NCBI GenBank assembly: GCA_035455165.1
Contig: DATIFP010000196.1
Span: 24,237 to 88,236, forward strand
Reading direction: 5' to 3'
DNA: 64,000 nt
From: Blastocatellia bacterium
Lineage (GTDB): Bacteria; Acidobacteriota; Blastocatellia; UBA7656
Shown one piece after another: positions 1,963 through 25,838 of the stretch. The first letter of the stretch is position 1. Each line of letters opens with the position of its first letter. The notes below the pieces were generated by a model. The model did no database searches and was not told the origin of the DNA. It saw only the letters and a list, made by a program, of their open reading frames with translations. Both the position numbers and the translations under genes were made by a program.

Positions 1963-2106
1963 GAGATAGATTACGCGCTGACAGCACTGCGTACGCTTTA
2001 TCTCCTAAAGTGTGGAACAAAAATCTCCTCCCAGGCGGTGGTGTCGCACGGTTGCCGGTAGCGACGGGAGGGTACCCTCGGTTAATTGCCCCTGAGCCGG
2101 AGGATC

Positions 2107-6452: not shown

Positions 6453-6666
6453 ATGGGTCCAGCCCAGCCAATCCAGGCCAGCCCTGAGCCATCGTCGACA
6501 GTCTCGATAACATGCGCTCGAGGCGCGGCCGTGGATTGCATTTTGCATCACAAACTGCGGTATTAAATCCCGTTGAGCCGAGAATCCTGCCCCTCGTATT
6601 GGTTCCGTCAGTCGGCTGTGCGCGTGGTTTCTGGCTGCGATAGAAAGACGTTGCAGAGGGAGCCTG

Positions 6667-7038
6667 ATGTCCGTGGGAATGACAGTCCTGGTAGTTGATG
6701 ACGAGCCCAGTGTTCGCGATGCCCTCGAGTTGATCTTGAGCGACAGCGGCTATTTCGTTCTTGCCTCGATGAGTGGGCGGGACGCGCTCGGCAAAGCGCA
6801 CAGGCAAAGGATCGACGTCGCGATCGTCGACGTCGAACTGCCAGATATGTCTGGGCTCGATGTTCTTCGTCATCTCCGGGAAAAAGACCCAGGCCTTCAA
6901 GTCATTGTTATTACGGCGAACCCCACTCCCGCGATAGTCCAAGAAGCGAGAAAGCGAGGCGCGGCTGATTGTCTGCATAAGCCCTTTCACCCCGCGGACA
7001 TTGTCGATGCGATCCAAAGTGCTTTGGCGAGACCGTAG
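6667..7038 (+). CDS. Stand-alone CheY-like receiver domain protein
   Basis: 123 aa, VLVVDDEPSVRDALE...DVAIVDVELPDMSG...KPF; no output domain. Confidence 0.8.
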   Translation: MSVGMTVLVVDDEPSVRDALELILSDSGYFVLASMSGRDALGKAHRQRIDVAIVDVELPDMSGLDVLRHLREKDPGLQVIVITANPTPAIVQEARKRGAADCLHKPFHPADIVDAIQSALARP

Positions 7039-7354
7039 GCGCCTGAGCCCCAGCACCTGGTCATCAATAATAGAGGTCACACTATGGTTTATGTTGAATC
7101 ATACAGACGAACTGTTGATTCACAATAGAACACGGTCGGTATGCGCCCGGAAGAATGCGGTGTCGCTAACAGAGTACGAATCAGGGCTTTCTGGTTTCTT
7201 TGTGACAGTCGGCACATCGTTTGCTCGTTGGGGTGCAGCGGCTCGGCGCCTTAATCCGAAGCGGCCGATGCGCGCTAGGGTTTGCTCTAGTCTGTGATCC
7301 ATAGCCCCGAAATCCACCTTTGAATTCCGGGCCCTGTAGTTAGCCGTTCTGATG

Positions 7355-7370
7355 GCTCACGCTGAGCAGG
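7355..7370 (+). promoter_or_regulatory. Candidate sigma54 -24/-12 element (TGGCTC-N7-GAGCA) about 150 nt upstream of the giant oxidase gene
   Basis: GG at 7356-7357 and GC at 7368-7369 have the canonical 12-bp spacing; the -24 box matches TGGCAC 5/6, the -12 box is a weak match (GAGC vs TTGC). An NtrC-type activator is encoded immediately upstream. Confidence 0.25.
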
Positions 7371-7522
7371 CCAAATACATTCGAGTCCAATCATAGCCTG
7401 GAGGCTGGCGGGCTTCTGCTGGATGCGTCACCGCCGGCCTAGGGATCAGTCAACACAGCATTCGCTTCGGCGCTCATGGCCCTGGGTGCACAGGAGTAGT
7501 TTACCCATTCGAGGGGAGGGGA

Positions 7523-10500
7523 ATGATTATGAGTCGCAAAAATCGCTTGTTGCGGTTTGTGATGGGCGGCCTAGTCGCCCTGGCATTTCTCGCCATTCCT
7601 GATCCAGCCAATGCGCAATTCCAAATACCGGCGGATGGCGCAGGAGGCGGTGGAACCGCGCCGGGTTGCAATCGAACCGTTAATGCCAATGTCGTTGCGT
7701 TGGATCAGGTATTTTTCTGGAATCGTCTCGGAGCGGTGCAGCCGCAAGGGATGATCTTCGCTCTCGAGCGAGACGTCGTCGCGTCCGACCCGGCCAAGCC
7801 GATCGGCGCGGGCAACGTCAAACTCAGAGAAGACAAACGCCCGCGACCGATAGTGCTTCGGATGAACGTGGGCGATTGCCTGCGAATCAACTTCAAAAAC
7901 CTGTTGAATCCGGTTCCGGTCGATCAGGAACAAACGGTCACTCGTGTGGCTTCCATTCGGGCGAACGGGTTGCAACTGGTAACCAGCATCGCCGATGACG
8001 GCTCGAACGTTGGAAGAAACGCCAGCAGCCTGGTTCCTCCCGGTGGGGGCGCCGTTTACACGTTCTACGCAGAGCGCGAAGGCGGCTACATGCTGTACAG
8101 CATGGGTTCGACGACCGGCGGCGAAGGGGATGGCGGACAACTCAACGCCGGGCTCTTTGGCGCAGTCACCGTACAACCCACCGGCGCTGAGTGGTACAGA
8201 AGCCAGGTTACGCAAAATGACCTGGAGCTCGCCACCAAAACCAAAACACCGGACGGCCACCCGGTGGTGGACTACAACGCGGTCTATCCGAAGGACCATC
8301 CGCGAGCCGGGCTCCCCATTTTGAAGATGACGCGTGAGGGGTTTGCCGGGCCCGAGATCGTACATACTGATCTCAACGCTATCATCACTGGACCAGGCGC
8401 GGACGGTTTCAACGGGTGGTACAAAGACACCCCGGTGAATCCGAACCGCAACCGTCCCTATCGTGAATTCACCATCATCTACCACGACGAGATCGGGGCG
8501 GTCCAAGCTTTCCCGCAGTTCGAAAGCCAGCCACCTCCAAATGAGAACCCGCTCAAGTTCACGCTTCATAGCGTGAGAGATGCTTTTGCGATCAACTACG
8601 GCACCGGAGGAATCGGCGCCGAAATCCTTGCGAATCGCCTGGGCGTTGGGCCGATGGCGAATTGCGTCGAGTGCAAGTACGAAGAGTTCTTCCTCACGTC
8701 ATGGGCGGTGGGCGACCCGGCGATGGTCGTGGATAAGCCGGCCAACGCCCCATGCACGATCGAAGACATAAGGAAGGCGAACATGGGTTGCGGCCCGGCC
8801 CCGGGGTTCAAGGCCACCAAGGCTTTCTACCCGGATGATCCATCCAACGTGCATCACAGCTACATAAACGATCACGTGAAGATGAGGATCCTGCACGGCG
8901 GGTCGAAGGAACATCACATTCATCACCTGCACGCGCATCAGTGGGTGCACACGCCCGACAACGACGACTCCGCGTATCTCGACAGTCAAGCGATCGGGCC
9001 GGGCGCCGCTTTCACGTTAGAGATCACCTACAACGGCACCGGCAATCGCAACAAGGTTGTCGGCGATTCGATCTTCCACTGCCACTTCTATCCGCACTTC
9101 GCGATGGGGATGTGGGAGTTGTGGCGCGCTCACGATGTATTCGAGTCGGGAACCGTGCTCGACGAGAAGGGCCGGCCCGCGCCTGGCTCGCGCGCGCTGC
9201 CCGACGCCGAGATTCTGGCAGGCACGCCGATTCCCGCACTGGTTCCGGTCCCGACGATGCCGATGGCTCCGCTTCCGGAAGTCAAGGTGTCGATTGTTAA
9301 CGGACAGGTGCAAATCGAGCAGGGGAAATTCGGACCGCTGCCGGGCAACCCGGGATACCCGTTCTTCATTCCCGCGGTCGCCGGACATCGTCCCCCCACT
9401 GCACCGCTGGACGTAGTGGATGACGGCGGACTACCGCGTCACGTGATCCTCGATGGAAAGTTCACCGAGGTTCACACCCGGCTCGACTTCAGCAAGGTCC
9501 TCGATCTTGCCATCGCAGAGGCGCGACCGGAAGCTGGAACGCCCGTGGAGAAGGAAGCCATGAGGTTTCACGGCATCCGCTTCCACCCGACCTGCCTTCC
9601 AAACGGCATTTGCGATCAGGCAATCGATCCTACCCAGATAGGCGCGAATATCAAATTCGTCACCAACGGGCTGCCCAGAAAGACCGACGCCAACCCGCTT
9701 GGAGCACAACCGGGCGCGCCTTACGCGGATCCCTGCGTTGACGACAATGGGAAGGCCGTGGGCGTCGCGCGCATGTACAAGGCGGCCGGCATTCAGATAG
9801 ACGCGAAGCTGAACAAGGCAGGCTGGCACTTCCCGCAGCAGCGAATCCTTGCGCTGTGGGGTGACGTCAAAGCCCTGGGTGGCCTCCCCGGCCAGCCACA
9901 GCCGACGTCGCCATCCAAGCCGCCTGAGCCGTTCTTCTTCCGCGCCAACACCAACGACTGCATAACGTTCTACCATACCAACCTGATGCCCAGCGTCTAC
10001 GCGCTGGACGACTACCAGGTCAGAACGCCGACCGACATCATCGGACAGCATATTCACCTCGTGAAGTTCGATGTGACTTCTTCGGACGGCTCCGGGAATG
10101 GTTGGAACTATGAAGACGGCACATTCAGTCCCGACGAGGTGATCGAGCGAATCGATGCGATCAACCTGGGCGGCGGATTGATAGTTCCTCCAGTCGTAGG
10201 CGACGGTCCGACACTCCTCGTAAAACTGGAACCGAAGCCGCATCCGTTCTTCGGCACGCTCGGCGCGCGGACGACGACTCAGCGCTGGTATGCCGACGAC
10301 ACCTTGAACAATGCGGGCGTCGATCGGACGCTGCGCACCGTATTCACACACGACCACTTCGGCCCTTCGACTCACCAACAGGTGGGTTTGTATGCCGGTC
10401 TGGTAATCGAACCGACTGGTTCGAAGTGGCGCGATCCGGAGACCGGTCAAATCCTCGGCGGGCAAGGCGTACCGCCTCCGAGGTTTGATGGAGGCCCGAC

Positions 10501-12724
10501 CAGTTGGCGAGTAGACGTTCTGACAGCGAACTCCGCGGACAGCTACCGCGAGTTCATGCTCGAGTTCGCCGACTTCCAGCACGCCTATCTGGCAGGCAGG
10601 GGCGGCGGCCGAGAGAACCCGCATCCCGATCCGCCCGGCGCAATAAATCCGCCGGCCAAGGAAGAAGCCCCTCTGCCTATCGTGATACAGAAAGCCGCCT
10701 TCTGCTTTGGCGGCGACCCGGCGCCATGCCCCGAAGCGATCTCGGCGGCTGACGTCGGCACGATGGTGGTCAACTATCGCAACGAGCCGGTCCCGCTGCG
10801 CATCCGCAATCCGATAACCGGCTTGCAGGTGGACGGAGAAGCGGGCGACCTGTCGCACGTATTCCGGTCGGATGTTCTTCGTAAGGATCCGGCGATGAAC
10901 GTGCAGCCCAACTTCTACTTCCCGTTGACGAAAGATGTACAACCGGGCGACCCGTATACGCCACTGCTGAGAGTCAATGAGAACGACCGGGTTCAGATCC
11001 GGATCCTCGTCGGCGCACACGAAGAAGGGCACAACTTCACGGTGCATGGAATCAAGTGGCTGTTTGAGCCTTCATTCGTGAATTCGGGTTATCGCAATTC
11101 ACAGATGATGGGGATAAGCGAACACTTCGAATTCATTGTCCCGACGATGCCCAAGAAGTTGACCGATAAGACGGCCGATTACCTCTACCGGCCGGGCGCG
11201 TCGACAGACGGTACGTGGAACGGTTTGTGGGGACTGGCCCGAGCCTACAAAGGCACAAGGGCTGACATGCTGGCCCTGCCATCCAATCCGAACGGCCGCG
11301 CTCCGGCGCTCTCGAATCAGGGTGACTTCTCGGGGGTCTGCTTGAAGACGCAGATACCCAAGACTTTTGGCGTCACCGCTGTTCTGGCGCGAGATGTCTT
11401 GCCCGCCGGCACACTTGTCTACAACAGGCGCGCGACGACGGTGAAGAATCCGAACACAGGCGAGACGCACAAGGGCCCGCTACACGACCCGACTGCGATT
11501 CTGTACGTGAGATCGACGGACATCGATGCGACGACCGGCAAGCTGAGGGCGGGCGTTCCAATCGAGCCGTTGATCCTCCGCGCCAATGCCGGCGATTGCA
11601 TCAACCTCACGTTGACCAACAAGCTGCCTTCGGTGTTGCCGGATCTTGCCGGCTGGAACTTCGTGCCAATGATTGTCGAGAAGTTCAATACCAATCAGGT
11701 CAGGCCTTCGAACAACGTGGGACTGCATCCGCAATTGGTGTTCTACGATGTGCTCGACAGCGACGGCTTTAATGTCGGCTTCAACGGCGTTCAAACGGTC
11801 GCTCCCGGATTCAGCCGCACGTATCAGTGGTACGCGGGTGACCTGGTGATCGCATCGGGGATAGGCAGTCTGAAACCGTTCGAGTTTGGCGGGACCAACT
11901 TGATGTCGTCAGACACCATCAAGCACAGCAACAAGGGTGCCTTCGGTGCTCTGATAATCGAGCCGCTAAACACGAAGTGGACTGAGGACAAGGGCTCGCG
12001 AGCCAGAGCGACCGTGACTGACTCGCTTGGCACGGTTCTCTTCCGCGACTTCGTGCTTATGCACCAGACCGACCTCAACCTGAGGTTCGGTGAAGGCTCG
12101 ACGATCGGCAACGGGTCGCCGGTGCCGAACCTGAGAGGAGGCGACGATGCCGAAGACTCGGCGCAGAAAGGGTTCAACTATCGAACCGAACCGCTCTGGT
12201 TCCGAATGGGCATTGCCCCTGACACTCCTTTGAGCAAGGGAGAAGCAATAGCCGAGTTTGGGCCGGGCGGAGTCTCCACTCGCGACATCGACTTCAGCAA
12301 CGTGTTGTCGAATTCGCAGGTGGGTCCCTGCATTGGCATCGACTGCAGTGAACCGGTAACGCCGATATTCACCGCAACGGCGGGAACACCCGTTCGTTTC
12401 CACCTGCTGAACGCCGGCGGCCACGGTCGCAACAACGTCTTCGCGCTGCACGGTCACGTTTGGCCGCAAGAGCCGTTCACTGCGAGCTCGACGGTCATCG
12501 GCCAAAACGTGCAGTCGGAGTGGTCAGGTGCTCAGATGGGAGTCGGAGCAGGCTTCCACTTCGTGGCGATCCCGAGGAATGGCGCAGGAGGAAAGTTCAG
12601 GATCACAGGCGACTACCTGTACCGGACCTTCCAATCGTTGCAGTTCGACGGCGGACTCTGGGGAATCTTCAGAGTCGCTTCGTCTGCCACCACTGATCCG
12701 GCCCTCCTGGATCCTCAACAATAA
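7523..12724 (+). CDS. Giant secreted multicopper-oxidase-like protein (1733 aa) with multiple cupredoxin-like domains
   Basis: Signal peptide (MIMSRKNRLLRFVMGGLVALAFLAIPDPANA). Cupredoxin strand signatures (LRMNVGDCLRINFKNLL; LRANAGDCINLTLTNKL). MCO copper-ligand motifs HHIHHLHAHQW (HxHLHxH type) and HCHFYPHFAMGMWELW (HCHxxxHxxxGM type). A second His-rich set: HIHLVKFDV, FTHDHFGPSTHQQVGLYAG, HGHVWPQ. Size class matches MofA/MnxG-type Mn-oxidising MCOs; that comparison is inference. Confidence 0.75.
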   Translation: MIMSRKNRLLRFVMGGLVALAFLAIPDPANAQFQIPADGAGGGGTAPGCNRTVNANVVALDQVFFWNRLGAVQPQGMIFALERDVVASDPAKPIGAGNVKLREDKRPRPIVLRMNVGDCLRINFKNLLNPVPVDQEQTVTRVASIRANGLQLVTSIADDGSNVGRNASSLVPPGGGAVYTFYAEREGGYMLYSMGSTTGGEGDGGQLNAGLFGAVTVQPTGAEWYRSQVTQNDLELATKTKTPDGHPVVDYNAVYPKDHPRAGLPILKMTREGFAGPEIVHTDLNAIITGPGADGFNGWYKDTPVNPNRNRPYREFTIIYHDEIGAVQAFPQFESQPPPNENPLKFTLHSVRDAFAINYGTGGIGAEILANRLGVGPMANCVECKYEEFFLTSWAVGDPAMVVDKPANAPCTIEDIRKANMGCGPAPGFKATKAFYPDDPSNVHHSYINDHVKMRILHGGSKEHHIHHLHAHQWVHTPDNDDSAYLDSQAIGPGAAFTLEITYNGTGNRNKVVGDSIFHCHFYPHFAMGMWELWRAHDVFESGTVLDEKGRPAPGSRALPDAEILAGTPIPALVPVPTMPMAPLPEVKVSIVNGQVQIEQGKFGPLPGNPGYPFFIPAVAGHRPPTAPLDVVDDGGLPRHVILDGKFTEVHTRLDFSKVLDLAIAEARPEAGTPVEKEAMRFHGIRFHPTCLPNGICDQAIDPTQIGANIKFVTNGLPRKTDANPLGAQPGAPYADPCVDDNGKAVGVARMYKAAGIQIDAKLNKAGWHFPQQRILALWGDVKALGGLPGQPQPTSPSKPPEPFFFRANTNDCITFYHTNLMPSVYALDDYQVRTPTDIIGQHIHLVKFDVTSSDGSGNGWNYEDGTFSPDEVIERIDAINLGGGLIVPPVVGDGPTLLVKLEPKPHPFFGTLGARTTTQRWYADDTLNNAGVDRTLRTVFTHDHFGPSTHQQVGLYAGLVIEPTGSKWRDPETGQILGGQGVPPPRFDGGPTSWRVDVLTANSADSYREFMLEFADFQHAYLAGRGGGRENPHPDPPGAINPPAKEEAPLPIVIQKAAFCFGGDPAPCPEAISAADVGTMVVNYRNEPVPLRIRNPITGLQVDGEAGDLSHVFRSDVLRKDPAMNVQPNFYFPLTKDVQPGDPYTPLLRVNENDRVQIRILVGAHEEGHNFTVHGIKWLFEPSFVNSGYRNSQMMGISEHFEFIVPTMPKKLTDKTADYLYRPGASTDGTWNGLWGLARAYKGTRADMLALPSNPNGRAPALSNQGDFSGVCLKTQIPKTFGVTAVLARDVLPAGTLVYNRRATTVKNPNTGETHKGPLHDPTAILYVRSTDIDATTGKLRAGVPIEPLILRANAGDCINLTLTNKLPSVLPDLAGWNFVPMIVEKFNTNQVRPSNNVGLHPQLVFYDVLDSDGFNVGFNGVQTVAPGFSRTYQWYAGDLVIASGIGSLKPFEFGGTNLMSSDTIKHSNKGAFGALIIEPLNTKWTEDKGSRARATVTDSLGTVLFRDFVLMHQTDLNLRFGEGSTIGNGSPVPNLRGGDDAEDSAQKGFNYRTEPLWFRMGIAPDTPLSKGEAIAEFGPGGVSTRDIDFSNVLSNSQVGPCIGIDCSEPVTPIFTATAGTPVRFHLLNAGGHGRNNVFALHGHVWPQEPFTASSTVIGQNVQSEWSGAQMGVGAGFHFVAIPRNGAGGKFRITGDYLYRTFQSLQFDGGLWGIFRVASSATTDPALLDPQQ

Positions 12725-15207: not shown

Positions 15208-15858
15208 ATGAATATGACAGATGAAACAAAACGTCGATTAGCGGGGCCCGCGTGGACCCGCACTGTGTGGACTGCGCTTGTGGTTGCGGCGAGCGTCGGG
15301 TTCTTGACATGGCCCATAGCGGCGCAATCAAAGAGCCCGGCTCCGGACGACAAGGATTCTCCGGCGCGAAACTATTTCACAGACGTTCAGTTGATCAATC
15401 AGGACGGCAAGCCTATGCGGTTCTACAGCGACTTGCTCAAGGACAAAGTGGTCATCATCAATACGTTCTTCACCACCTGCACAAGCGTCTGTCCTCCGAT
15501 GAGCAGGAACCTGGAACGAGTTCAAAGCTGGCTGGGAGACCGGCTCGGCAAGGACGTTCACATAATCTCGATCAGCGTTGACCCCGCAGTCGACACTCCG
15601 CCGCGGCTCAAAGACTACGCCCAAAAATACAAAGCGCGGCCGGGCTGGTTCTTTGTCGCCGGCAAGAAAGAGAATGCCGAATTCGCATTGCGAAAGATCG
15701 GACAATTTGTCGAATCGAAAGACGACCACTCGACGGTGATCATCATCGGGAATCTGCATACCGGGCTCTGGAAGAAAGCAATGGGTATGGCGAAGGCCGA
15801 AGACCTGATCAAGGTCGTGGAGAGCGTGGTCGATGATAAGCCGGGAGAGGTGAAATGA
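15208..15858 (+). CDS. Sco1/SenC-family copper chaperone (thioredoxin fold, CxxxCP)
   Basis: Signal/anchor, FFTTCTSVCPPM (CxxxCP copper site), conserved His in DHSTVIIIG, ISISVDPAVDTP. Confidence 0.85.
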   Translation: MNMTDETKRRLAGPAWTRTVWTALVVAASVGFLTWPIAAQSKSPAPDDKDSPARNYFTDVQLINQDGKPMRFYSDLLKDKVVIINTFFTTCTSVCPPMSRNLERVQSWLGDRLGKDVHIISISVDPAVDTPPRLKDYAQKYKARPGWFFVAGKKENAEFALRKIGQFVESKDDHSTVIIIGNLHTGLWKKAMGMAKAEDLIKVVESVVDDKPGEVK

Positions 15859-17474
15859 AAGCGAACCCAGCCGCGGTGATGAATATCAAACGCATTGCAT
15901 TCGTGGTTGCCTTGATGCTGATGCTCTTGTTTATCGGCAGCGCCGCCGCCAGCGGACCCGGACCGGGTCAACTGACTGAGCAGGAGAAACGGGGGAAGTT
16001 CATTTACCTGCGCGGCGCCAGCCCTTCGGGTAGGGAGATAACCTGCTATCTGGGAGACGGGACGATGGAGGTGCCGGCAGCGGCGATGCTGTGCGCAAAC
16101 TGTCACGGGTTTGACGGCCGGGGAAATCCGGAAGGCGGGGTGGTGCCCTCGGACATAACCTGGGAGGCGCTCTCCAAGTCTTATGGAGTCACTCACGCGA
16201 GCGGACGAAAGCATCCTCCCTACACGGACCGCGCGCTTGGGATCGCGGTGGCCAAAGGCATAGACCCGGCGGGGAACAAGCTGCCCAACACGATGCCGAG
16301 ATACTGGATGTCGCCGGAAGATCTCGCCGATCTGGTCGCTTATGTGAAACGTCTCGGACAGGATCGCGACCCGGGGTTGACGGAGACGAGCATCCGAGTC
16401 GGGACGATCGTGGCCGGACCGGGCCCGATGTCGGAAATGGGCCACGCGGTGGAAGCGGCCCTGGGAGCTTATTTCGAGGAGGTCAACGCCCAGGGTGGAA
16501 TCTACAATCGCATGATCGAGCTGCGCGTCGCCAAGTCACCGGCTGACCCGCGAGCAGCCAAATCAAATGCCGAGCGGTTCATCGACACCGAGCAGGTGTT
16601 CGCAATGGCGGGCGCGTTCATCGCGGGAGCGGACAAGGAAATAGCTTCGCTTGTCGAAGAAAAAGAAGTAGTGCTGGTAGGGCCGTCGACTCTCTATCCG
16701 GAGATTGGCTTTCCCCTGAACCGACACACTTTCTATCTGTTCTCGGGCTTGAAAGATCAAGCCGGTGCGCTGGTCAACTTCATCGGAGACAAACTTCAAA
16801 AGCAGACCCCGCGGCTCGCGATTGTCGCTCTCGATAGCGCCGACGCCGCGGGCCTCACGGAAGCGATTGAGAAACACGCCAAAAGACGCGGCTACAACGC
16901 AATCACCAGGCTCAGCTATTCGCGCAAGCAGTTTGATCCGGGCCAACTCGTCAAGAAGCTGAGCGACGCGGGCGCGGATGCGGTTTTCCTCTCAGGTTGG
17001 GGCGGAGAAGAGCTGGCGCTTATGAAAGAGGCGGCGAGGATGAACTTTACACCGTACTTTTTGATTCCCGGGTCGCTTGCCAGTAAGGAACTCCTGGATG
17101 CCCCGCCGATCCTCAAAGAAAGGATCTTTTTGGCTTTTCCGACTCTGCCAACAGACCAGACGCCGGAGGGCGTGCGCGAGTTTCTCACGATGGCAGAAAA
17201 GCACAACCTTCCGCAAAAGCAGCTTGCCGCTCAGCTCTCGGCATACTGCGCGGCGAAGATTCTCGTTGAGGCCTTGAAGCTGACGGGCAGGGAGCTGAGC
17301 CGCGAGAAGCTCATCAGGACGCTGGAGGGTCTTTACAACTTCGATACCGGATTGAGCCCCCGAATCTCTTACGGCCCGAATCGCCGAATCGGCGCGTTCG
17401 GAGCCTACATTGTAATGATCGATCCGGAGAAAAAGCAGTTCATTCCTGCGGGCGGCTGGATTACGCCCGAGTAG
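15855..17474 (+). CDS. Fusion protein: N-terminal mono-haem cytochrome c domain plus type-I periplasmic substrate-binding (LivK/PBP1-like) domain
   Basis: Signal peptide; CANCHG haem-binding CxxCH in the first ~150 aa; the remainder resembles branched-chain-amino-acid-type periplasmic binding proteins (VGTIVAGPGPMSEMGHAVEAALGAYFEEVNAQGGIYNRMIEL...). Start overlaps the Sco stop (ATGA). Confidence 0.7.
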   Translation: MKANPAAVMNIKRIAFVVALMLMLLFIGSAAASGPGPGQLTEQEKRGKFIYLRGASPSGREITCYLGDGTMEVPAAAMLCANCHGFDGRGNPEGGVVPSDITWEALSKSYGVTHASGRKHPPYTDRALGIAVAKGIDPAGNKLPNTMPRYWMSPEDLADLVAYVKRLGQDRDPGLTETSIRVGTIVAGPGPMSEMGHAVEAALGAYFEEVNAQGGIYNRMIELRVAKSPADPRAAKSNAERFIDTEQVFAMAGAFIAGADKEIASLVEEKEVVLVGPSTLYPEIGFPLNRHTFYLFSGLKDQAGALVNFIGDKLQKQTPRLAIVALDSADAAGLTEAIEKHAKRRGYNAITRLSYSRKQFDPGQLVKKLSDAGADAVFLSGWGGEELALMKEAARMNFTPYFLIPGSLASKELLDAPPILKERIFLAFPTLPTDQTPEGVREFLTMAEKHNLPQKQLAAQLSAYCAAKILVEALKLTGRELSREKLIRTLEGLYNFDTGLSPRISYGPNRRIGAFGAYIVMIDPEKKQFIPAGGWITPE

Positions 17475-17515
17475 ATGATGCAATGCCGAACCGGAAATTC
17501 CAGAGGAGGAGACCA

Positions 17516-19108
17516 ATGAAACCCAGATTCTTTGTCCTTATCATAGCGATGATGATCGGCGCGTCTGTGACGACGGCCCAGTCCAGCTCGCCCGCAAGCC
17601 CCAGCCAACAGGCGCAAACCGGGCCCACGAAACAGGCTGCGTCGGAGCAGGTTCCGAAGCCGGCCGAAAAGAAAGTCGAAGACTGCGGCTGCGAGGCGGC
17701 CAACACCCCGATCGATGTCGCGGCGATCGTCAACGGCGTGAAGATCACCACGAAGGAAATCGATGACCAGGTGAACGATGAGAAGTCCGGTTTGCAAAAG
17801 CAGGTCGTGGACGCTCGCCGCCGAGAGCTTAACCTGCAGATCAACTCACGGCTCCTCGAGGCTGAAGCCACGAGAAGAGGCACGACAGCCGCAAACGTGC
17901 TCGAGCAGGAGATCATTGCCGCGGTCAAAGATCCGACCGACGCGGAAACCCAGGCCTTCTATGACGAGAACAAGAGCCGCATACCCGGGCCGTTCAGGGA
18001 CTTCAAGCAGCAGATAGTTGAATACATCAAAGCCCAGCGCCAGGAAGGTGCCGCGAAGAAGTTCGCCGATAAGCTCAGGTCAGCGGCCGACGTAAAGATC
18101 CTCGTACAGACCGTCACCGCTCCGCAGAGCGAGTCCGATCGCGCGAAGGTGCTGGCTACCGTTAACGGCGCAGCGATCACCTCCGGAGACGTGGAAAATG
18201 CGTTGAAGCCATTGATCTACGACGTGCAGCTCCGGGTATATGGATTGAGAAAGGCTGAGCTGGCTCTCAGGATCAACGATCTCTTGCTGGAGCAGGAAGC
18301 CCAGAAGAGGAAGATTACGCCGAAGGCGCTCGTTGACGCAGAGTTGACGCCAAATGTGAAGAAAGTCAGCGAAGCGGAGGCAAAGAAGTTCTTCGAGGAC
18401 AACAAGGATCAGATAGAGGGTGAATATGAGCAGTTGAAGGACCAGATCGTCGATCACCTTCAGAAGAAGGAACAACGCAGGGCGGAGGTCGTATTCGCCG
18501 ACCGGCTCAGGCAAGGCGCAAAGATCGAGATGAACCTGAAGGAACCTGAATCTCCGGTTTTTCAGATCGCGACCGACGATCAGCCCTCGAGAGGAAAAGC
18601 CGACGCGCCGGTCACAATTGTCGAGTTCACTGATTTCGAATGCTCGACGTGCCAACAGTCTCAACCGGTCCTGGAAAAGCTCGCTCAGGATTTTCCCGCC
18701 AAGGTGAGACTGGTGGTCAGGGACTACCCGCTCGAGAAACACAAGAACGCATTCAAGGCAGCGGAAGCCGCAGAAGCGGCGCGAGAGCAGGGGAAGTACT
18801 GGGACTATTCGGCGGTCTTGTTTGAGAATCAAAAGGAGTTGGGAGTCGAGAAGCTGAAGGAATATGCGAGCAAAGTGGGACTTGATCGCAAAAAGTTCGA
18901 CGCCGAGTTGGATGCCGGCAAGTATGCCGCGAAAGTGCAGCGCGATATGCAGGATGGAATGCGAGCAGGCGTGAGCGGAACGCCCACAATCTTCATCAAT
19001 GGACGCCGTGTCTCGGACAGGACTTATGAAGCATTGAGGGCAGCCGTCGAAGAGGCCTTGAAAACGCCTGGAAGCCAATCAGAGCGACGCGACGCCGATC
19101 GGCGCTGA
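17516..19108 (+). CDS. Secreted SurA-N-like chaperone repeats fused to a DsbA-family thiol:disulfide oxidoreductase domain (CSTC)
   Basis: GGAGGAG Shine-Dalgarno before ATG 17516. Signal peptide. CGCE motif (AEKKVEDCGCEAANTP). Two repeats of A-VNG--IT--D-type chaperone segments. Thioredoxin CxxC (VTIVEFTDFECSTCQQSQPVLEKL). Confidence 0.75.
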   Translation: MKPRFFVLIIAMMIGASVTTAQSSSPASPSQQAQTGPTKQAASEQVPKPAEKKVEDCGCEAANTPIDVAAIVNGVKITTKEIDDQVNDEKSGLQKQVVDARRRELNLQINSRLLEAEATRRGTTAANVLEQEIIAAVKDPTDAETQAFYDENKSRIPGPFRDFKQQIVEYIKAQRQEGAAKKFADKLRSAADVKILVQTVTAPQSESDRAKVLATVNGAAITSGDVENALKPLIYDVQLRVYGLRKAELALRINDLLLEQEAQKRKITPKALVDAELTPNVKKVSEAEAKKFFEDNKDQIEGEYEQLKDQIVDHLQKKEQRRAEVVFADRLRQGAKIEMNLKEPESPVFQIATDDQPSRGKADAPVTIVEFTDFECSTCQQSQPVLEKLAQDFPAKVRLVVRDYPLEKHKNAFKAAEAAEAAREQGKYWDYSAVLFENQKELGVEKLKEYASKVGLDRKKFDAELDAGKYAAKVQRDMQDGMRAGVSGTPTIFINGRRVSDRTYEALRAAVEEALKTPGSQSERRDADRR

Positions 19109-19180: not shown

Positions 19181-19252
19181 GACTTAAAGCGCGTTCTCGT
19201 GCATCAACGAACCAGCCGAACTGACGAGCGGCAGAGAGAGGCGGTGCAAAGT

Positions 19253-20005
19253 ATGAAACACATAATCGCAATTACACTGATCGTTTGCGGAATCCTGGCG
19301 GCCGGCGCTGGGCCGGGTTCCGTGAATGTCGCGTTGGCCCGGCAATCCAAGAAAAAGCAGAAAGCCGCCGGCTACTACTGTGTGATGGATCCCGAGGTCA
19401 AAGCCTCGAAGCCCGGCACCTGTCCCAAGTGCGGAATGGATCTGAGGGCGATTGAGAAAGACGGCGACGCAGCCTCACCGGATACCGAGTTGTCGAAACC
19501 TAATGAAGCCGATTCTGGTTCGCCCGTGAAGCTGCAAATCCCGGACGTGAGCGTGTACGATCAGGACGGCCAGAAGTTGAAGTTTGTCACCGATCTGGTA
19601 AGAGGCAAAACGGTAGCGATAAATTTCATCTTTACAACCTGTACGACGATCTGTCCCCCGTTGGCGGCAACGTTTCGCAGAGTCCAGCAGGAGATGGGAG
19701 ATCGTGTTGGCCACGACGTGAGACTGATCTCGATAAGCGTTGATCCTGTCGTCGACACACCCGAGAGATTGAAGCAGTTTGGCGCCAAGTTCAAAGCAGC
19801 TCCCGGATGGACCTTCGTCACCGGGAGCAAGTTTGAGATCAACTCTCTATTGAAAGCGCTCGGCGCGGCGGTGGTGGACAAGAACGATCACACGCCGATG
19901 GTACTTGTGGGCAATGACGCGGCGGGCTACTGGACCCGCACCTATGGGCTCGCCCCGGCCTCGGTTCTCGTAAGAGTCATAACCGATGCGGCGAGTAAGA
20001 ACTGA
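19253..20005 (+). CDS. Sco1/SenC-family copper chaperone with N-terminal heavy-metal-binding (YHS/HMBD-type) domain
   Basis: YYCVMDPEVKASKPGTCPKCGMDL matches the YxCPMHPE...PGxCPxCGMxL metal-binding domain of CusB/CopA N-termini. Sco domain IFTTCTTICPPL, ISISVDPVVDTP, DHTPMVLVG. Start chosen at MKHIIA (signal peptide). Confidence 0.8.
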   Translation: MKHIIAITLIVCGILAAGAGPGSVNVALARQSKKKQKAAGYYCVMDPEVKASKPGTCPKCGMDLRAIEKDGDAASPDTELSKPNEADSGSPVKLQIPDVSVYDQDGQKLKFVTDLVRGKTVAINFIFTTCTTICPPLAATFRRVQQEMGDRVGHDVRLISISVDPVVDTPERLKQFGAKFKAAPGWTFVTGSKFEINSLLKALGAAVVDKNDHTPMVLVGNDAAGYWTRTYGLAPASVLVRVITDAASKN

Positions 20006-20204
20006 GCATGCGACGATAGATCTCCGCCATACTGGGACGACTCGGGGAACAAGCCGGCAACCCTCATAATTCGCGAACACCAGGGCCGATTTGACGGTCG
20101 AATCACGATCATGAGTCAATGTTCGGGTAGCCAGGGTCGAACTATGACGATGCTTCGACCTGCCGGCGTCGTTCAACACATGTTGATTCATGATTGGAGG
20201 TCCG

Positions 20205-21764
20205 ATGAAAAGGGTTTCACTGTTGATGGCGGTTGGAGCGATGATCGCTTCTCTTGCGCAACCAGGCAAGGCGTTTTTGAATGTCTCGCAGGATCGGTCC
20301 GCCGCGCCCGTCGCGAAGCAGTCCGCGGCGGCAACGCCCTCAAAATCCGCCGAGAAAAAAGCCGAAGACTGCGGTTGTGAAGTCAAGCCTCCGCCCGACG
20401 TGCTTGCGATTGTCAACGGGGTCAAGATCGCGATCAAGGACGTCGAGGAACCTCTGCAAGAGCGCATCAGGGCGCTTCAGGATCAAGTGATTGAAGCGCG
20501 AAAGCGCCAGCTTGAACTCGAGATCAATTCCAGCCTCCTTGACGCGGAAGCCCGTCGTCTTGGCATCACTACGGAAAAGCTTCTGGATCGTGAAGTAACG
20601 CAAAAGTCCAAAGAGCCGACCGAAGCAGAAGCGCGATCCTTCTACGATTTGAACAAGAGTCAGATTCAAGGCGAGTTCAAGGACGTAAAGGACCAGGTTA
20701 TCGGTTACCTGCGAGGGCTGCGTCAGCGGGAGATTGCGAAGCGGTATGCCGACCGACTTCGGACCGGCGCGCGCGTCAAAGTGCTTGTGCCGTCGGCCAC
20801 TCCTCCGGAAACTGATGCCGACCGTGCGCGTGTATTCGCGATCGTAAACGCCAAGCGCATAACGTCCGGGGATGTCGAGGATTCGCTCAAAGCGATAGTT
20901 GCCAGCGTGCAGGAACAGATCTACAGCCTCCGCAAAGACGAGTTGGACGCGAAAATCAATAACACGTTGCTCGACCAGGAGGCGCAGAAGAAGGGGGTCA
21001 CTGCGCCGGCCCTGTACCAGACCGAGATAGCACCTCGAATGAAGCCCGTGACCGATGAAGAGGCGCGCAAGTTTTACGATGAGAACAAGAGCCGTATGAC
21101 CGGGACCTTCGAGCAGCGGCAGGCGCAGATCATCGAGTACTTGCAGAACTCCAGGAGAACCGCTGCTGAGAAAGCCTTCGCGGAAGACCTGCGAAAAGGA
21201 GCGACTCTTCAAGTGTTCCTCAAGCCGCCCGATCCGCCTGTGTTCAACATACCAATCGACGATCGTCCGTGGCGAGGCGGAGCCTCCGCCCCGGTCACGA
21301 TTGTAGAATTCACCGACTACGAGTGTCCGAGCTGTGGCGCGACACAACCGGTGCTGGAGGAAATCGTCAAGGAATTCGGCGACAAAGTAAAACTGGTCGC
21401 GCGGAATTACCCCCTCGACCAGCATAAGCATGCCTTCAAAGCCGCGGAGGCTGCGGAGTCAGCGCGAGAGCAAGGCAAGTACTGGGAGTATGTCGCGATA
21501 CTGTTCAAGAATCAGAACGCTCTCGAGGTTGAGAAGCTCAAGGAATATGCCGATCAATTGGGACTCGACCGCGGAAGGTTCGATGCCGCGCTCGACTCAG
21601 GGAAGTTCGCCGACAAGGTAAGACGAGACCTCAGCGAAGGCGACAAAGTGGGAGTTGACTCGACCCCGACGGTGTTCATCAACGGGAGGAGGGCGCGTGA
21701 CAGGAGCCGCGAAGCCTTGAAAGCGGCCATAGAAGCCGCTCTTAAGGAGGGCGTCAAGAAATAG
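20205..21764 (+). CDS. Paralog of 17516..19108: SurA-N-like repeats fused to DsbA-family domain (CPSC)
   Basis: GGAGG before ATG 20205; CGCE motif (AEKKAEDCGCEVKPPP); VTIVEFTDYECPSCGATQPVLEEI; same architecture and ~50% identity to the first copy. Confidence 0.75.
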   Translation: MKRVSLLMAVGAMIASLAQPGKAFLNVSQDRSAAPVAKQSAAATPSKSAEKKAEDCGCEVKPPPDVLAIVNGVKIAIKDVEEPLQERIRALQDQVIEARKRQLELEINSSLLDAEARRLGITTEKLLDREVTQKSKEPTEAEARSFYDLNKSQIQGEFKDVKDQVIGYLRGLRQREIAKRYADRLRTGARVKVLVPSATPPETDADRARVFAIVNAKRITSGDVEDSLKAIVASVQEQIYSLRKDELDAKINNTLLDQEAQKKGVTAPALYQTEIAPRMKPVTDEEARKFYDENKSRMTGTFEQRQAQIIEYLQNSRRTAAEKAFAEDLRKGATLQVFLKPPDPPVFNIPIDDRPWRGGASAPVTIVEFTDYECPSCGATQPVLEEIVKEFGDKVKLVARNYPLDQHKHAFKAAEAAESAREQGKYWEYVAILFKNQNALEVEKLKEYADQLGLDRGRFDAALDSGKFADKVRRDLSEGDKVGVDSTPTVFINGRRARDRSREALKAAIEAALKEGVKK

Positions 21765-21786: not shown

Positions 21787-23775
21787 TTAGCTTTGAGGCG
21801 ACGGCATCTGGAGCCGCGCGCGGAGGTCCTGAACGTCCTTGCTTACTTTGGACGCGTCGGGCGCGTCAGGCTGAAGCTGCAGGTATATAGATAGCTGGTC
21901 AATCGCTTCCTTGAGCTGTCCCTTCGCTTTGTAGGCATACGCGAGAAACTTGTGCGCGTCAACGATCACCGAACTCTCGGCGAGCGCCGCATTCAAGAAA
22001 CTAATCCCCTCGTCGTACTTTCCCTTCTTCACCAAAACTCCCCCCATGTGAAACTTCAGCATGGGGTTCTGCGGACTGAGACGCATCGCACGATCATAGC
22101 AGGCGATCGCGCGGTCATAGTTCTTGAGACCGGTGTCGAATGTGTGGATAGTGCCGAGTGCGTCCCACAACACCGGCGATGAGTCCTGGAGCTTCAGCCC
22201 TGTATCGCAAACTTCGAGGGCGCGATCCAGAATGTCGCGGTCGGGGACGGACCCGGTTGCGAGCTGTTGAGAGTATATCAGCACATAACACGAAGCGAGG
22301 TTCGCCAGGACGAGGGGGTTGTCCGGGTTTATTTTCAGGTACAGCTCCAGTTGTTCAGCCGCCTTGGGGTAGTCGGTCAAATCGATAAGCTTGTGGCCGA
22401 GCACGAAGTGTGACATTGGCTGCTCAGGTGCTGTTTTCACCCCGTGATACCACACGCTCATATCATCCTTCCACGTCGCGTTCTGTGCGAGGGCTTTCCC
22501 CGCAAACAACAACACGAGCACGGTTGTCACCGCTGCTTGCGCCCGGACCCGGCTTGCGAACGGGAGCCACTGCTCAAACGGCACTTTTGCAATGGCCATG
22601 GCGACAAGCAGTGAGAACCCTATCGATGGAATGTAAAGGTAGCGCTCCTGAACCAGGAAGTTCTCGTCGAACGCCCCCAGATTCAGAACGGGAAGCAGGT
22701 TGATCGCGAACCAGAGAATGCCGAACCGAGCAACCGTGGATTTCCAGAGCGGCCGGAGCGCAACCGCCAAACCGATAAGACCGACAAGCGGTACGATGAA
22801 ACGCACGTTCAGCGCGGTCCTCACCATCGGCGTCAGATGAAAGAGCGAAAGCTCGACGGGCCAGACCAGCAGCCCGATGTATTTCCAGATGACGAGCGGA
22901 ATGGTCTGCACTATCCACCGAGTCGGATATGTCCTGAATTCGGCGTTGTTGAGCGCAAAGCCAAGCGAATAATATCGTGCGGCGAAATAAAGTATTGCCA
23001 CTGCGAGAAAACAAGACCCAAAGACGATACCGCTCTTGAGCCGGTCACCCAGGCGCTTTTCCTGATTAACTACGAATAGCTCGTATGAGCCGATGAATAA
23101 TGAAAGAGCGACCGCGGGTTCCTTGACGAGCGTTGCAAGCAGAAACAGCAATAGCGAGAAGACAAGAAGCTTTGTCTTTTTTTCCTCTCGATAGCGCATG
23201 TACAGGAAAAGCGAGGGCAGCAGGAACACGGCGAGGAGGGGATCTGTGACGCCGCTTATCCACGCTACCGATTCGCTTCGGAGAGGATGGGCGGCGAAGA
23301 CGAACGCACCAATCGCGGACACACGAGCGTCCGCGGTGAATCGCCGCAGAACTTTGTAGACGAAGTAAGCCGCAAGAACGTGCAGCGCTACGTTGGCGAG
23401 GTGCCAGCCCGGGGCCCAGTTCCCAAACAACGCCCACATCGTCATCAGGTAGATCACAAACGCCGGCCGATAATACGGAGTGGACGGCTTGTCTTGCGTA
23501 TTCGGGTCCTGGTCCTGCTGAACTCGCCAATACCACGTTTCGGTGACGAGCGCTTTCGGTAGGTTGCCGAGATCACGAATAAACTTGTTGTCCAGTATTT
23601 GGGTAGTGTCGTCGTATGCAAATCCATTCCACAGCGTATTCGAGAACGCGAGAAACGTAACGCCCAGCACCAGCCACAGAATCCAATCCCTGGGCGTCCT
23701 GGCTTGATCGGCGTTGACTGAAGGGGTTGTGCGCGGCCTGTTCCGAAGGCTGCGTGATCGGCTTTTTTTGGCCAC
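21787..23775 (-). CDS. Multi-pass membrane protein with C-terminal TPR repeats (PMT/TMTC-like putative glycosyltransferase)
   Basis: About 400 aa hydrophobic N-terminal region followed by TPR-like repeats (AYAYKAKGQLKEAIDQL, AIACYDRAMRLSPQNP). Confidence 0.6.
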   Translation of the reverse strand: MAKKSRSRSLRNRPRTTPSVNADQARTPRDWILWLVLGVTFLAFSNTLWNGFAYDDTTQILDNKFIRDLGNLPKALVTETWYWRVQQDQDPNTQDKPSTPYYRPAFVIYLMTMWALFGNWAPGWHLANVALHVLAAYFVYKVLRRFTADARVSAIGAFVFAAHPLRSESVAWISGVTDPLLAVFLLPSLFLYMRYREEKKTKLLVFSLLLFLLATLVKEPAVALSLFIGSYELFVVNQEKRLGDRLKSGIVFGSCFLAVAILYFAARYYSLGFALNNAEFRTYPTRWIVQTIPLVIWKYIGLLVWPVELSLFHLTPMVRTALNVRFIVPLVGLIGLAVALRPLWKSTVARFGILWFAINLLPVLNLGAFDENFLVQERYLYIPSIGFSLLVAMAIAKVPFEQWLPFASRVRAQAAVTTVLVLLFAGKALAQNATWKDDMSVWYHGVKTAPEQPMSHFVLGHKLIDLTDYPKAAEQLELYLKINPDNPLVLANLASCYVLIYSQQLATGSVPDRDILDRALEVCDTGLKLQDSSPVLWDALGTIHTFDTGLKNYDRAIACYDRAMRLSPQNPMLKFHMGGVLVKKGKYDEGISFLNAALAESSVIVDAHKFLAYAYKAKGQLKEAIDQLSIYLQLQPDAPDASKVSKDVQDLRARLQMPSPQS

Positions 23776-23904
23776 TATCGAAGTCCTGCCTGCGACCCGT
23801 AATGGATTCGGTTATGAATTCAAGTAGGTCGGTGATCGACGACCAGCTCGGGAATTCGTGATCGAAATACTATCGGTCGGTTACATGCGATGTCAACGCG
23901 CCCG

Positions 23905-24837
23905 TCATGGACTTCCGTCGGGATTTCGGTCGGGTTTTCGGTCGGCTTCTTCTTTCGATTGTCCAAAGGCTTGAGAGAAGAACCCCCGGATACTGCGGGT
24001 CAGTCCGGCCGGCTCTTGCCCGCCGCGCACGACGAGCACCGGACACTCCGCGCGATTCACGATCTCGCGTGTTATGTTGCCCATGATGTAGCTCCGCAGA
24101 TTTCCACCCTCCGGTGACGATCCGGTGACGACCAGATCGTAGTCGCAGCGTCGTATCTCCTTGAACACTTCGCTGATGACCAACCCGTGACGCAAACGAA
24201 CGTCGGCTGTGACGCCCATTCCTTGAAGCGCCTCCTTCTCGCGGCGAAGGTTCTGTCCCAATCCGGAGCTCGAGTGCAAGAGCAGATTTACGTCCTCTTC
24301 CATCTTTATTAGATCCGAGTACACCGCGGGCGGCTCTGCCATCACGTGGAAGAGCGTGATGGAAGCGCCGGCCGCTTTGGCGATGGCCCCCGAGAATTCC
24401 ACTGCTCGATCGATATATTTCTCGCCACCGCTGCATATCAGTATTCTCTTGATGGTTTCGCGATTCCCGATCACCACCAGCACGGGCGGGGCAACCGCTT
24501 TTATTATCTTGTAGGCCTTCGCGGACATCAGGAAGGGACCGCGAGTGCCTTTGCGCAATGCCCCGATCACCACCAGGTCGTAGCTCGTCTCCTCTGTCCG
24601 CTTGACGATTTCCTCGATCGGCTCGCCGGCTTTCGTGATTACTTCGGCGCTGACGCCTCGGTCCCGGAGCAATTGTTGCGCGCGCCGTAGAGAGTCAAAC
24701 ACCGAGTCTTCTTCGCCAGGCTTTTCCGTGATTCCGAGGATGGTTGTGTCGGCCTCGCACTTCTCCGCGATGAGTCCTCCAAAACGCACCGCGTTCTCCG
24801 CCTGCGCAGAACCGTCTGTGCAAATCAATATCTTCAT
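23905..24837 (-). CDS. Tandem-domain universal stress protein (UspA family)
   Basis: Two Usp-like halves (MKILICTDGS... and RILICSGGEK...) with the ATP-binding G-rich motif GSRG-like. Confidence 0.8.
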   Translation of the reverse strand: MKILICTDGSAQAENAVRFGGLIAEKCEADTTILGITEKPGEEDSVFDSLRRAQQLLRDRGVSAEVITKAGEPIEEIVKRTEETSYDLVVIGALRKGTRGPFLMSAKAYKIIKAVAPPVLVVIGNRETIKRILICSGGEKYIDRAVEFSGAIAKAAGASITLFHVMAEPPAVYSDLIKMEEDVNLLLHSSSGLGQNLRREKEALQGMGVTADVRLRHGLVISEVFKEIRRCDYDLVVTGSSPEGGNLRSYIMGNITREIVNRAECPVLVVRGGQEPAGLTRSIRGFFSQAFGQSKEEADRKPDRNPDGSP

Positions 24838-24887
24838 GGGCGAATCAATCCTTCATTCGGGCGGTAGCTGACCGCCATTCACAGGTA

Positions 24888-25838
24888 TTACTTCACGTGA
24901 TGTCCCGAGAGCAGTCCGTAGATTACTATTGCAGCCCCGATCAGAGGCAGCGGCACGAACGCGAGTCTGATCTTGGGCCCGTGAAAATACTCGGTTGATG
25001 CAGCCCCGATCTGCGCGCCAATAGCGGCGCCGGTGTGCATTACAAGCGCGATCATAATATCTACGTTGCCCTTGATCGCGTGCGTCAGGGTCCCGTAGCT
25101 GGCGGAGATGACGACCTCAAACAGGTCCGTACCAACCGCCACGTGAGTTGGAACGCCGAGCAAATAGACCATTGAAGGCATCCTGATGTAGCCGGCTCCT
25201 CCGCCGAGAAACCCGCTGAAGATGCCGCCGACGAAGGCCACGAGCAGGATGGCCCACAAAGAGACCCGTTCAACACCGGACGCGCGCAGCTTGATCATCG
25301 GCGGAATATTGATTCGATGAACCTTCCGGGCGACGTGATCGAACGCCGATTCGTCTTCTTTAGCCTCTAACTTCTTGACGCCAATGCCGGACATTTCGGC
25401 CTCGCGTTTTCGGTCTCGCTGCATCTTTATAGTTTGCCAGCTCTCCCACGCAACGAACGCCGAGATGGAAATCAGCACTACTACGAACGTGATGCCGATG
25501 ACTCGATCGACGTTGGCTGCACCCAGGTGCTTCAGGCTTTCGATTCCTTGAGCGCCCACCTCGACGCCCACGATTGTCCCGATCACCATTATCGTGCCCA
25601 GCTTCAGGTCTACGTTTCCGAGCGCGCGATGTTTCTTTGCCGCCACGATAGACTTCCCGACGATGTGCGCAAGGTCCGTACCCACGACGAAGTTCATCGG
25701 AACGCCGACGGCAAAAAGGGCTGGCCCCGCCAGGAAGCTTCCTCCCACTCCGAAGAATCCTCCGAATATCCCGATGACAAATCCGGTGATCACCAGGTAG
25801 ATCGGATCGATATGAGTTTGCGAGATGAGAAAGTCCAT
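24888..25838 (-). CDS. TauE/SafE-family (DUF81) anion exporter membrane protein
   Basis: Repeated GGFFGVGGSFLAGPAL / GGIFSGFLGGGAGYIRMP motifs, 8 hydrophobic segments. Confidence 0.75.
   Translation of the reverse strand: MDFLISQTHIDPIYLVITGFVIGIFGGFFGVGGSFLAGPALFAVGVPMNFVVGTDLAHIVGKSIVAAKKHRALGNVDLKLGTIMVIGTIVGVEVGAQGIESLKHLGAANVDRVIGITFVVVLISISAFVAWESWQTIKMQRDRKREAEMSGIGVKKLEAKEDESAFDHVARKVHRINIPPMIKLRASGVERVSLWAILLVAFVGGIFSGFLGGGAGYIRMPSMVYLLGVPTHVAVGTDLFEVVISASYGTLTHAIKGNVDIMIALVMHTGAAIGAQIGAASTEYFHGPKIRLAFVPLPLIGAAIVIYGLLSGHHVK

Follow-up and report, generated by a model that had tools for sequence, protein, structure and literature searches.

Described counterparts of the operon

The closest described counterpart of the system considered here is the putative mnxG operon of Pseudomonas putida GB-1, six genes tabulated in a 2024 paper (PMC11409713). 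The subject is a gene encoding a cytochrome c domain fused to a LivK-like periplasmic binding protein, found in a 64-kb stretch of DNA from an uncultured Blastocatellia bacterium (Acidobacteriota; contig DATIFP010000196.1), and "the window" below means that whole stretch. The GB-1 operon lists mnxG itself, two genes named "electron transport protein SCO1/SenC," one named "SurA domain, porin chaperone," a YVTN propeller gene, and a gene for a substrate-binding protein with a cytochrome c domain (PMC11409713). Manganese oxidation in P. putida also depends on the MnxS1/MnxS2/MnxR two-component system and on sigma-54 (PMC11409713). In P. putida these regulators are encoded about 70 genes from mnxG, and the similar set of the window is encoded between two mnxG genes. 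Manganese oxidation in P. putida further requires cytochrome c maturation (ccm) genes, as summarized in later papers (Caspi 1998, de Vrind 1998), and recent Pseudomonas papers (including PMC11409713) invoke a link between a cytochrome and respiration to explain why ccm mutants lose Mn(II) oxidation. In a hyper-oxidizing P. resinovorans strain a "putative cytochrome c" of COG class "EC", PRES513_05637, was increased; this class would suit a fusion of LivK with cytochrome c, and the protein is a candidate ortholog.

The window reproduces the gene set of the GB-1 mnxG operon gene for gene, and its gene order agrees with the published one. Both contain the cytochrome c and LivK-type architecture, the mnxG, YVTN, SCO1/SenC, and SurA-domain partners, and sigma-54-dependent two-component control. 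They differ in host, in the placement of one Sco gene before and one after the fusion gene in the window, and in the SurA-like proteins, which in the window carry DsbA domains and are duplicated, whereas GB-1 lists a "SurA domain" protein only. By architecture and synteny, the fusion gene is a member of the same family as the cytochrome/binding-protein gene of GB-1 and probably its counterpart. This match makes it a known, annotated component of MnxG operons with a predicted function only, and the family itself is widespread.

Other systems offer partial analogies. Natural fusions of Sco with cytochrome c reportedly exchange electrons between heme and Sco-bound copper. These also set a class-I heme c domain beside a Sco copper site, but there the heme domain is fused to Sco itself, whereas here a binding-protein fold carries it, and the link to Sco is one of translational coupling only. 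The retention of a heme c domain beside Sco, as in those fusions, suggests one-electron exchange from heme to copper during copper handling. To our knowledge, the Bacillus mnx operon contains no cytochrome, Sco, or propeller genes. Its MnxE and MnxF (with MnxG, PDB 9bxa) are likewise small accessory proteins co-encoded with an MnxG multicopper manganese oxidase, but they have no sequence or fold relation to the fusion, MnxG alone being homologous. In cytochrome c-tethered copper nitrite reductases (PMC13324648), a class-I cytochrome c is also the redox partner of a cupredoxin-type copper enzyme; there, however, enzyme and cytochrome form one fused polypeptide, and the cytochrome supplies the electrons for catalysis, whereas here it would act as a separate polypeptide on a binding-protein scaffold, beside an oxidase without an obvious need for a donor.

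A conserved companion of MnxG and Sco

The fusion gene is, with little doubt, a conserved cytochrome gene of MnxG/Sco operons and not a component of a transporter. With the proteins of the window as tblastn queries, we searched 83 loci that contain a family member and come from Acidobacteriota, Gammaproteobacteria, and Entotheonella, and we counted features relative to flank length; counts for MnxG and the propeller are given for the 44 loci whose flanks extend for 8 kb or more on each side, flanks elsewhere being short. Among these 44 loci, MnxG was found in 39 and the YVTN propeller in 40, and in 40 a Sco gene lay no farther than 300 bp from the fusion gene. Over all 83 loci, 74 had a Sco gene no more than 300 bp away; it was upstream in 45 of these and downstream in 29, and always on the same strand. 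Three gene orders recur: mnxG-YVTN-Sco-fusion, as in the window; YVTN-Sco-fusion-Sco-mnxG; and, in Gammaproteobacteria, fusion-Sco-(YVTN reversed)-mnxG. The Sco-fusion pair is retained even in loci that lack MnxG, including the full-flank loci L013 and L072, so this pair is the most conserved core of the neighborhood.

In the window, the fusion gene is the fourth step of a run that begins with mnxG and continues through the propeller and a first Sco gene (Table 1). The mnxG reading frame has no Pfam match, yet it aligns with Bacillus MnxG (PDB 9bxa_A) in five segments (phmmer E 1e-97) and contains HxH and HCHxxxHxxxxM copper motifs. The initial annotation had proposed an oxidase as the partner of the fusion. 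An oxidase is indeed its neighbor, of the MnxG multicopper Mn(II) type rather than a respiratory heme-copper oxidase. That annotation had also placed the gene in one operon with Sco and DsbA-like genes, and both of these are real by Pfam. The fusion gene is read without interruption from an ATG preceded by a GGAGAGG ribosome-binding site, and this ATG shares bases with the stop codon of the upstream Sco gene (ATGA), an overlap that indicates translational coupling. All products of the operon have N-terminal export or anchor sequences.

Table 1. Features of the window around the fusion gene (positions are those of the window; residue numbers are those of the encoded protein)
Feature	Position	Strand	Basis or remark
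Second mnxG paralogue, 3′ end (549 residues), cut by the window start	2-1651	+	56% identity to residues 1143-1718 of MnxG 7523-12724
PAS histidine kinase, receiver-PAS histidine kinase, and sigma-54-dependent response regulator	2086-6452	+	Pfam architectures
Stand-alone receiver-domain protein	6667-7038	+	Response_reg, E 2e-30
Candidate sigma-54 (-24/-12) promoter CGGCACATCGTTTGCT	7210-7225	+	One mismatch to TGGCAC-N5-TTGCW
MnxG-type giant multicopper Mn(II) oxidase, 1,733 residues, first operon gene	7523-12724	+	phmmer to 9bxa_A
YVTN-type beta-propeller protein, 686 residues	13110-15170	+	Cytochrom_D1, YNCE, and beta_rpt_yvtn matches
Sco1/SenC copper chaperone, CTSVC motif	15208-15858	+	PF02630, E 6.5e-17; CxxxC scan
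Cytochrome c/type-I binding-protein fusion gene, 539 residues	15855-17474	+	Pfam domains, AlphaFold2 model, Foldseek
Predicted signal peptide or membrane anchor, residues 1-33	15855-15953	+	Sequence reading; hydrophobic helix, AAA-S site
Class-I cytochrome c domain, residues ~38-175	15966-16379	+	PF00034, E 8e-9 on the isolated domain
CANCH heme-attachment motif, residues 80-84	16092-16106	+	Single CxxCH; motif scan
Met147-Pro148, predicted distal heme ligand motif	16293-16298	+	Motif scan and alignments
Type-I (LivJ/LivK-like) periplasmic binding-protein domain, residues 179-523	16389-17423	+	Peripla_BP_6, Foldseek
SurA_N-like/DsbA-like thioredoxin protein (CSTC)	17483-19108	+	Thioredoxin_4, E 2.5e-31; weak SurA_N_3 match
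Second Sco with N-terminal heavy-metal-binding domain (HMBD), CTTIC	19199-20005	+	PF02630 and PF19335
Second SurA_N-like/DsbA-like protein (CPSC)	20190-21764	+	Pfam

The family is large, and the initial description of the architecture as uncommon does not hold. Searching 5.8 billion proteins yielded, among the candidates that were scored, 1,406 relatives, of which the 120 best have equal length and exactly one CxxCH each, and an exhaustive profile search of representatives clustered at 50% identity returned 1,815 proteins at E<=1e-30, with the top 150 (E<1e-139) being mostly full-length fusions. When one genome per GTDB species was scanned, 270 species proved to have relatives, most of them Blastocatellia and Pyrinomonadaceae (Acidobacteriota), with further ones in Gammaproteobacteria, including a metagenome-assembled genome (MAG) of Chromatiales USCg_Taylor, and in Candidatus Entotheonella. 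The closest to the window are Blastocatellia MAGs, with 78-89% identity across the operon. Relatives carry the database name "ABC transporter substrate-binding protein." One MAG, JAKEHD01, has two copies of the fusion on separate contigs (L008 and L074), showing that paralogues with possibly different roles exist.

A few members lie outside MnxG operons. In L013, L015, and L072 (Pyrinomonadaceae/Acidobacteria MAGs; match at about 10001-11650), the fusion gene stands alone, without MnxG or the propeller, and is divergent from a six-transmembrane PilS-like PAS histidine kinase and a sigma-54 regulator, and a Tectomicrobia member adjoins a Che-like signaling cluster. Relatives on Ralstonia and Paraburkholderia megaplasmids have 23-24% identity over 91% of the length, and in the distant relative at these loci, L084 (Paraburkholderia largidicola AP028202.1, 1-18015) and L085 (Ralstonia syzygii), Pfam detects the cytochrome only. 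There, the gene is preceded on its 5′ side by a multicopper oxidase gene, a 2,723-residue cadherin-like (cadherin/Big_9) protein, and a LolA-like gene, and followed on its 3′ side by a Sco-domain protein and a type II secretion cluster. The region may be another copper-oxidase surface system.

The cytochrome c domain

The two-domain fusion is genuine and far above chance. The initial annotation had described a single-CxxCH heme domain joined to a type-I binding-protein fold, and the domain search it proposed finds both parts. Cytochrom_C (PF00034) matches residues 78-167 with 34.4 bits against a curated cutoff of 21.3, and the N-terminal domain alone scores 37.1 bits. The CxxCH motif is kept in all 120 close homologs and in 146 of 150 diverse representatives of the 50% clusters, the four exceptions being N-terminally truncated, and C80, C83, H84, M147, and P148 are invariant in both alignments. 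No other operon product contains a CxxCH. With its CxxCH, profile score, and predicted distal methionine ligand, the domain is a class-I c-type cytochrome, to which heme is predicted to be covalently attached. As for the closest solved cytochrome, a search with the isolated heme domain gave marginal matches only (E >= 0.18).

Conservation within the protein is also highest in the cytochrome domain. Among the close homologs, identity to the query averages 70% in this domain versus 54% in the binding-protein domain; in the diverse set, the averages are 51% versus 36%. Residues 1-33 are not conserved among homologs. This N-terminus is basic and hydrophobic, ends in ...IGSAAA/SG, and lacks a lipobox cysteine, and it is predicted to be a Sec signal or a membrane anchor that would direct export. 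An AlphaFold2 model built from 50 homologs (mean pLDDT 81.6, pTM 0.74) shows a helix at residues 5-28 followed by a stretch of low pLDDT. A Foldseek search of this model against the PDB returned no solved structure with both domains together, and the fusion protein has no match among the PHROGs phage families.

The binding-protein domain and the question of transport

The C-terminal part of the protein has both the two-lobe fold and the profile match of a type-I binding protein, with a Peripla_BP_6 score of 148 bits (E 6.7e-43). The fold, on which the initial annotation had staked its interpretation, is borne out by the AlphaFold2 model, whose top Foldseek matches in the PDB are all LivJ/LivK-type type-I binding proteins (E 1.5e-20 to 1e-14). 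Over residues 179-536 it resembles the cluster-B type-I binding proteins LivJ and LivK of E. coli (2liv, 1z15, 1usg, 4n03; E 1e-16 to 1e-20), at 15-20% identity. The fusion differs from these in its added N-terminal heme domain, in the replacement of the residues that bind the alpha-amino acid, and in having no LivHMGF-type partner.

The best NCBIfam and PDB sequence matches of the fusion are LivK/LivJ-type proteins, yet the NCBIfam scores fall far under cut-off (LivK PRK15404, 57 versus 477 bits; UrtA, 27 versus 493 bits). A phmmer alignment to 2liv and 1z15, at about 20% identity and hence indicative rather than proof, places Ala257 at LivJ Ser79, Leu280 at Thr102 (with Thr279 adjacent), Trp382 at Tyr202 (not conserved in the family), Gly406 at Glu226, and Met195 at Tyr18. 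In this alignment, the LivJ residues for binding the alpha-amino and alpha-carboxylate groups (Ser79, Thr102, Tyr202, and Glu226) are not kept in the fusion. The family has invariant residues of its own in the domain (R219, F293, D434, T498-G499, and R510-R511), which, together with purifying selection on the domain, make a ligand or a fixed protein partner likely.

The initial annotation saw no adjacent genes for an ATP-binding cassette (ABC) transporter and judged transport unlikely, and we concur: Pfam finds no ABC permease or ATPase among the scanned open reading frames (ORFs) of at least 150 residues in the 64-kb window. A motif scan found an ABC ATPase-like ORF near a family member in 11 of 85 loci; the scan is crude, a strict version having missed known ATPase cases and a looser one having been used. 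In the gammaproteobacterial locus L002, the nearby ATPase is, by Pfam, part of a complete importer that has a type-II binding protein of its own. The components of this importer are an SBP_bac_11 type-II binding protein, a BPD_transp_1 permease, and an ABC ATPase that carries a fused low-molecular-weight phosphatase/arsenate-reductase-like domain, with the fusion gene immediately 3′. At six other gammaproteobacterial loci (L022, L027, L028, L036, L047, and L050), the motif scan places an ABC ATPase-like ORF at the equivalent position (about 6500-9920). A role in transport was rejected on the combined grounds of the missing permease and ATPase in the scanned ORFs of the window, the NCBIfam scores under cut-off, and the lost LivJ ligand residues.

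Possible functions of the fusion protein

Sco proteins are generally seen as copper deliverers, and MnxG requires many copper ions. On balance we favor a role for the fusion as a one-electron redox accessory of the Sco/MnxG copper machinery of its operon, a reading held with modest confidence. It is favored because the heme domain is the most constrained part of the protein, because Sco genes are translationally coupled to it and almost always adjacent, because the operon products are all extracytoplasmic, and because electron exchange between heme c and Sco-bound copper has a precedent in the Sco-cytochrome c fusions. The initial annotation had suggested a redox relay for the oxidase, and this is plausible: gene context supports it, and the function is predicted only.

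The proposed mechanism would begin with export of the protein by its N-terminal signal peptide or anchor. The cytochrome c maturation system would attach a single heme covalently at CANCH, its likely axial ligands being His84 and Met147, to give a periplasmic one-electron redox module for the copper machinery of the operon. This module may exchange electrons with the adjacent Sco chaperone or chaperones, with MnxG, or with both. It could set the Cu(II)/Cu(I) state while the many copper sites of MnxG are loaded, or poise the copper system in some other way, or it could connect the MnxG oxidase to the respiratory electron pool. The LivK-like domain would most likely be a docking or ligand-gating scaffold rather than a transport receptor. 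Heme attachment, the identity of the redox partners, which way electrons flow, and what the binding-protein domain does are all predictions.

Several points weigh against a redox accessory of the copper machinery. Multicopper oxidases are self-sufficient, passing electrons from their substrate to O2 internally, and need no cytochrome. The ccm phenotype of Pseudomonas also includes the loss of McoA-dependent oxidation, and no such cytochrome is encoded in the mcoA operon, so the phenotype may have another cause. These two points count against a respiratory link as well. Architecture and synteny are the only basis for orthology to the P. putida protein, and no experiment on the fusion protein or any ortholog, including a knockout, was found in the literature searched. 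The binding-protein domain is under clear purifying selection, with Pfam E-values of 1e-43 in distant members, so a real small-molecule ligand is possible. Finally, the few family members that stand alone beside signaling genes fit a sensor better.

A sensor is the main rival, although we consider it unlikely, and weaker than the relay where the initial annotation had offered both. The protein would capture a small molecule, such as a species of Mn or Cu, a chelate, or an organic acid, or its heme would report the redox state of the periplasm, and the protein would then signal to the MnxS-type kinases and the sigma-54 regulator in control of mnxG. The type-I binding-protein fold has widely been put to use in sensors, and binding-protein co-sensors such as TorT-TorS and LuxP-LuxQ would be analogues. 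Genes for two histidine kinases, a sigma-54 regulator, and a receiver protein stand directly upstream of the operon, and the stand-alone members divergent from a PilS-like kinase and the Tectomicrobia member beside a Che-like cluster point the same way. Yet among the 83 loci the sigma-54 regulator query matched only five and the two kinase queries five and ten, compared with the 74 that have Sco within 300 bp. Of the two kinases of the window, one opens with a receiver domain and lacks an N-terminal membrane segment, the other has no more than a short hydrophobic stretch at its N-terminus, ahead of the PAS domain, and neither has an evident periplasmic docking domain. A sensor would also sit poorly with the conservation pattern, the heme domain rather than the ligand domain being the more conserved part.

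A direct respiratory link appears rather improbable. Here the cytochrome would take up electrons released when Mn(II) is oxidized, whether at MnxG or on the cell surface, and hand them to a terminal oxidase, and the cell would gain energy. This overlaps with the copper-machinery reading and differs from it in partner and direction only. The strict conservation of the heme motif and the putative cytochrome c increased in P. resinovorans are in its favor, but MnxG, as a complete oxidase, reduces O2 on its own, the potential of the first step, Mn(II) to Mn(III), is far above that of typical class-I cytochromes, and the scanned ORFs of the window include no terminal oxidase or bc1 genes.

More speculatively, the protein could be a ligand-gated cytochrome, an idea to which we give a small chance. 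Closure of the lobes on a Mn or Cu species or a chelate would switch the exposure or potential of the heme, gating electron flow between MnxG/Sco and the respiratory chain. Such a protein would be the missing c-type cytochrome behind the 1998 ccm finding and would couple manganese oxidation to energy metabolism in many soil bacteria.

The reading as an ordinary branched-chain amino-acid, amide, or urea ABC binding protein with an extra cytochrome domain agrees with the database names and with the LivK/LivJ-type best matches, but it is largely refuted, and very improbable, given the scores far under the NCBIfam cut-off, the loss of the LivJ ligand residues, the lack of an ABC permease or ATPase among the scanned ORFs of the window, and the scarcity of ABC ATPase-like ORFs at the related loci.

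Other genes and features of the window

The regulatory genes upstream of the operon appear MnxS1/MnxS2/MnxR-like by their architecture and position. An ORF at 6379-7080 on the minus strand is probably spurious, because the receiver gene on the plus strand fills that stretch. The candidate sigma-54 promoter CGGCACATCGTTTGCT is intergenic, about 300 nt upstream of mnxG; consensus matches are no more frequent in the window than expected by chance, so the candidate is supported by its position only. The 3′ end of a second mnxG at the start of the window means that the organism has at least two MnxG paralogues, which flank the regulatory genes.

The YVTN propeller has an N-terminal anchor and a C-terminal filamin/Ig-like domain. 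It scores well under cut-off on models of clade III lactonase-type nitrous oxide reductase, the hydrazine synthase beta subunit, and the propeller associated with pyrroloquinoline quinone (PQQ) catabolism. A link to PQQ or lanthanides was considered and dropped, as the propeller scores 94.7 bits to TIGR03866 against a cutoff of 287.3 and the fusion matches no binding-protein model of PQQ systems. The two SurA_N/DsbA-like proteins are paralogous, each of about 530 residues that join a weak SurA_N-like chaperone region to a C-terminal DsbA/Thioredoxin_4 domain, and both match, under cut-off, the model of the Rcas_1661 thioredoxin-like (seleno)lipoprotein. Downstream of the operon, at 21787-25838 (minus strand) and 26296-27156 (plus strand), lie genes for a LolA-like protein, a tetratricopeptide repeat protein with a CcmH/CycH-like region, a tandem universal stress protein, and a TauE/SafE exporter. 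A LolA-like gene is common to this flank and to the locus of the Paraburkholderia relative.

Implications

Manganese oxidation by bacteria shapes metal and carbon cycling, and why cells do it and why c-type cytochromes are needed for it are open questions. A strictly conserved heme protein accompanies MnxG and Sco chaperones across Acidobacteriota, Gammaproteobacteria, and Entotheonella, and more than 1,000 database entries are misleadingly annotated as "ABC transporter substrate-binding protein." The window indicates that soil Blastocatellia carry complete, duplicated MnxG systems, and the fusion gene within them is a single concrete candidate for the link of c-type cytochromes with manganese oxidation.

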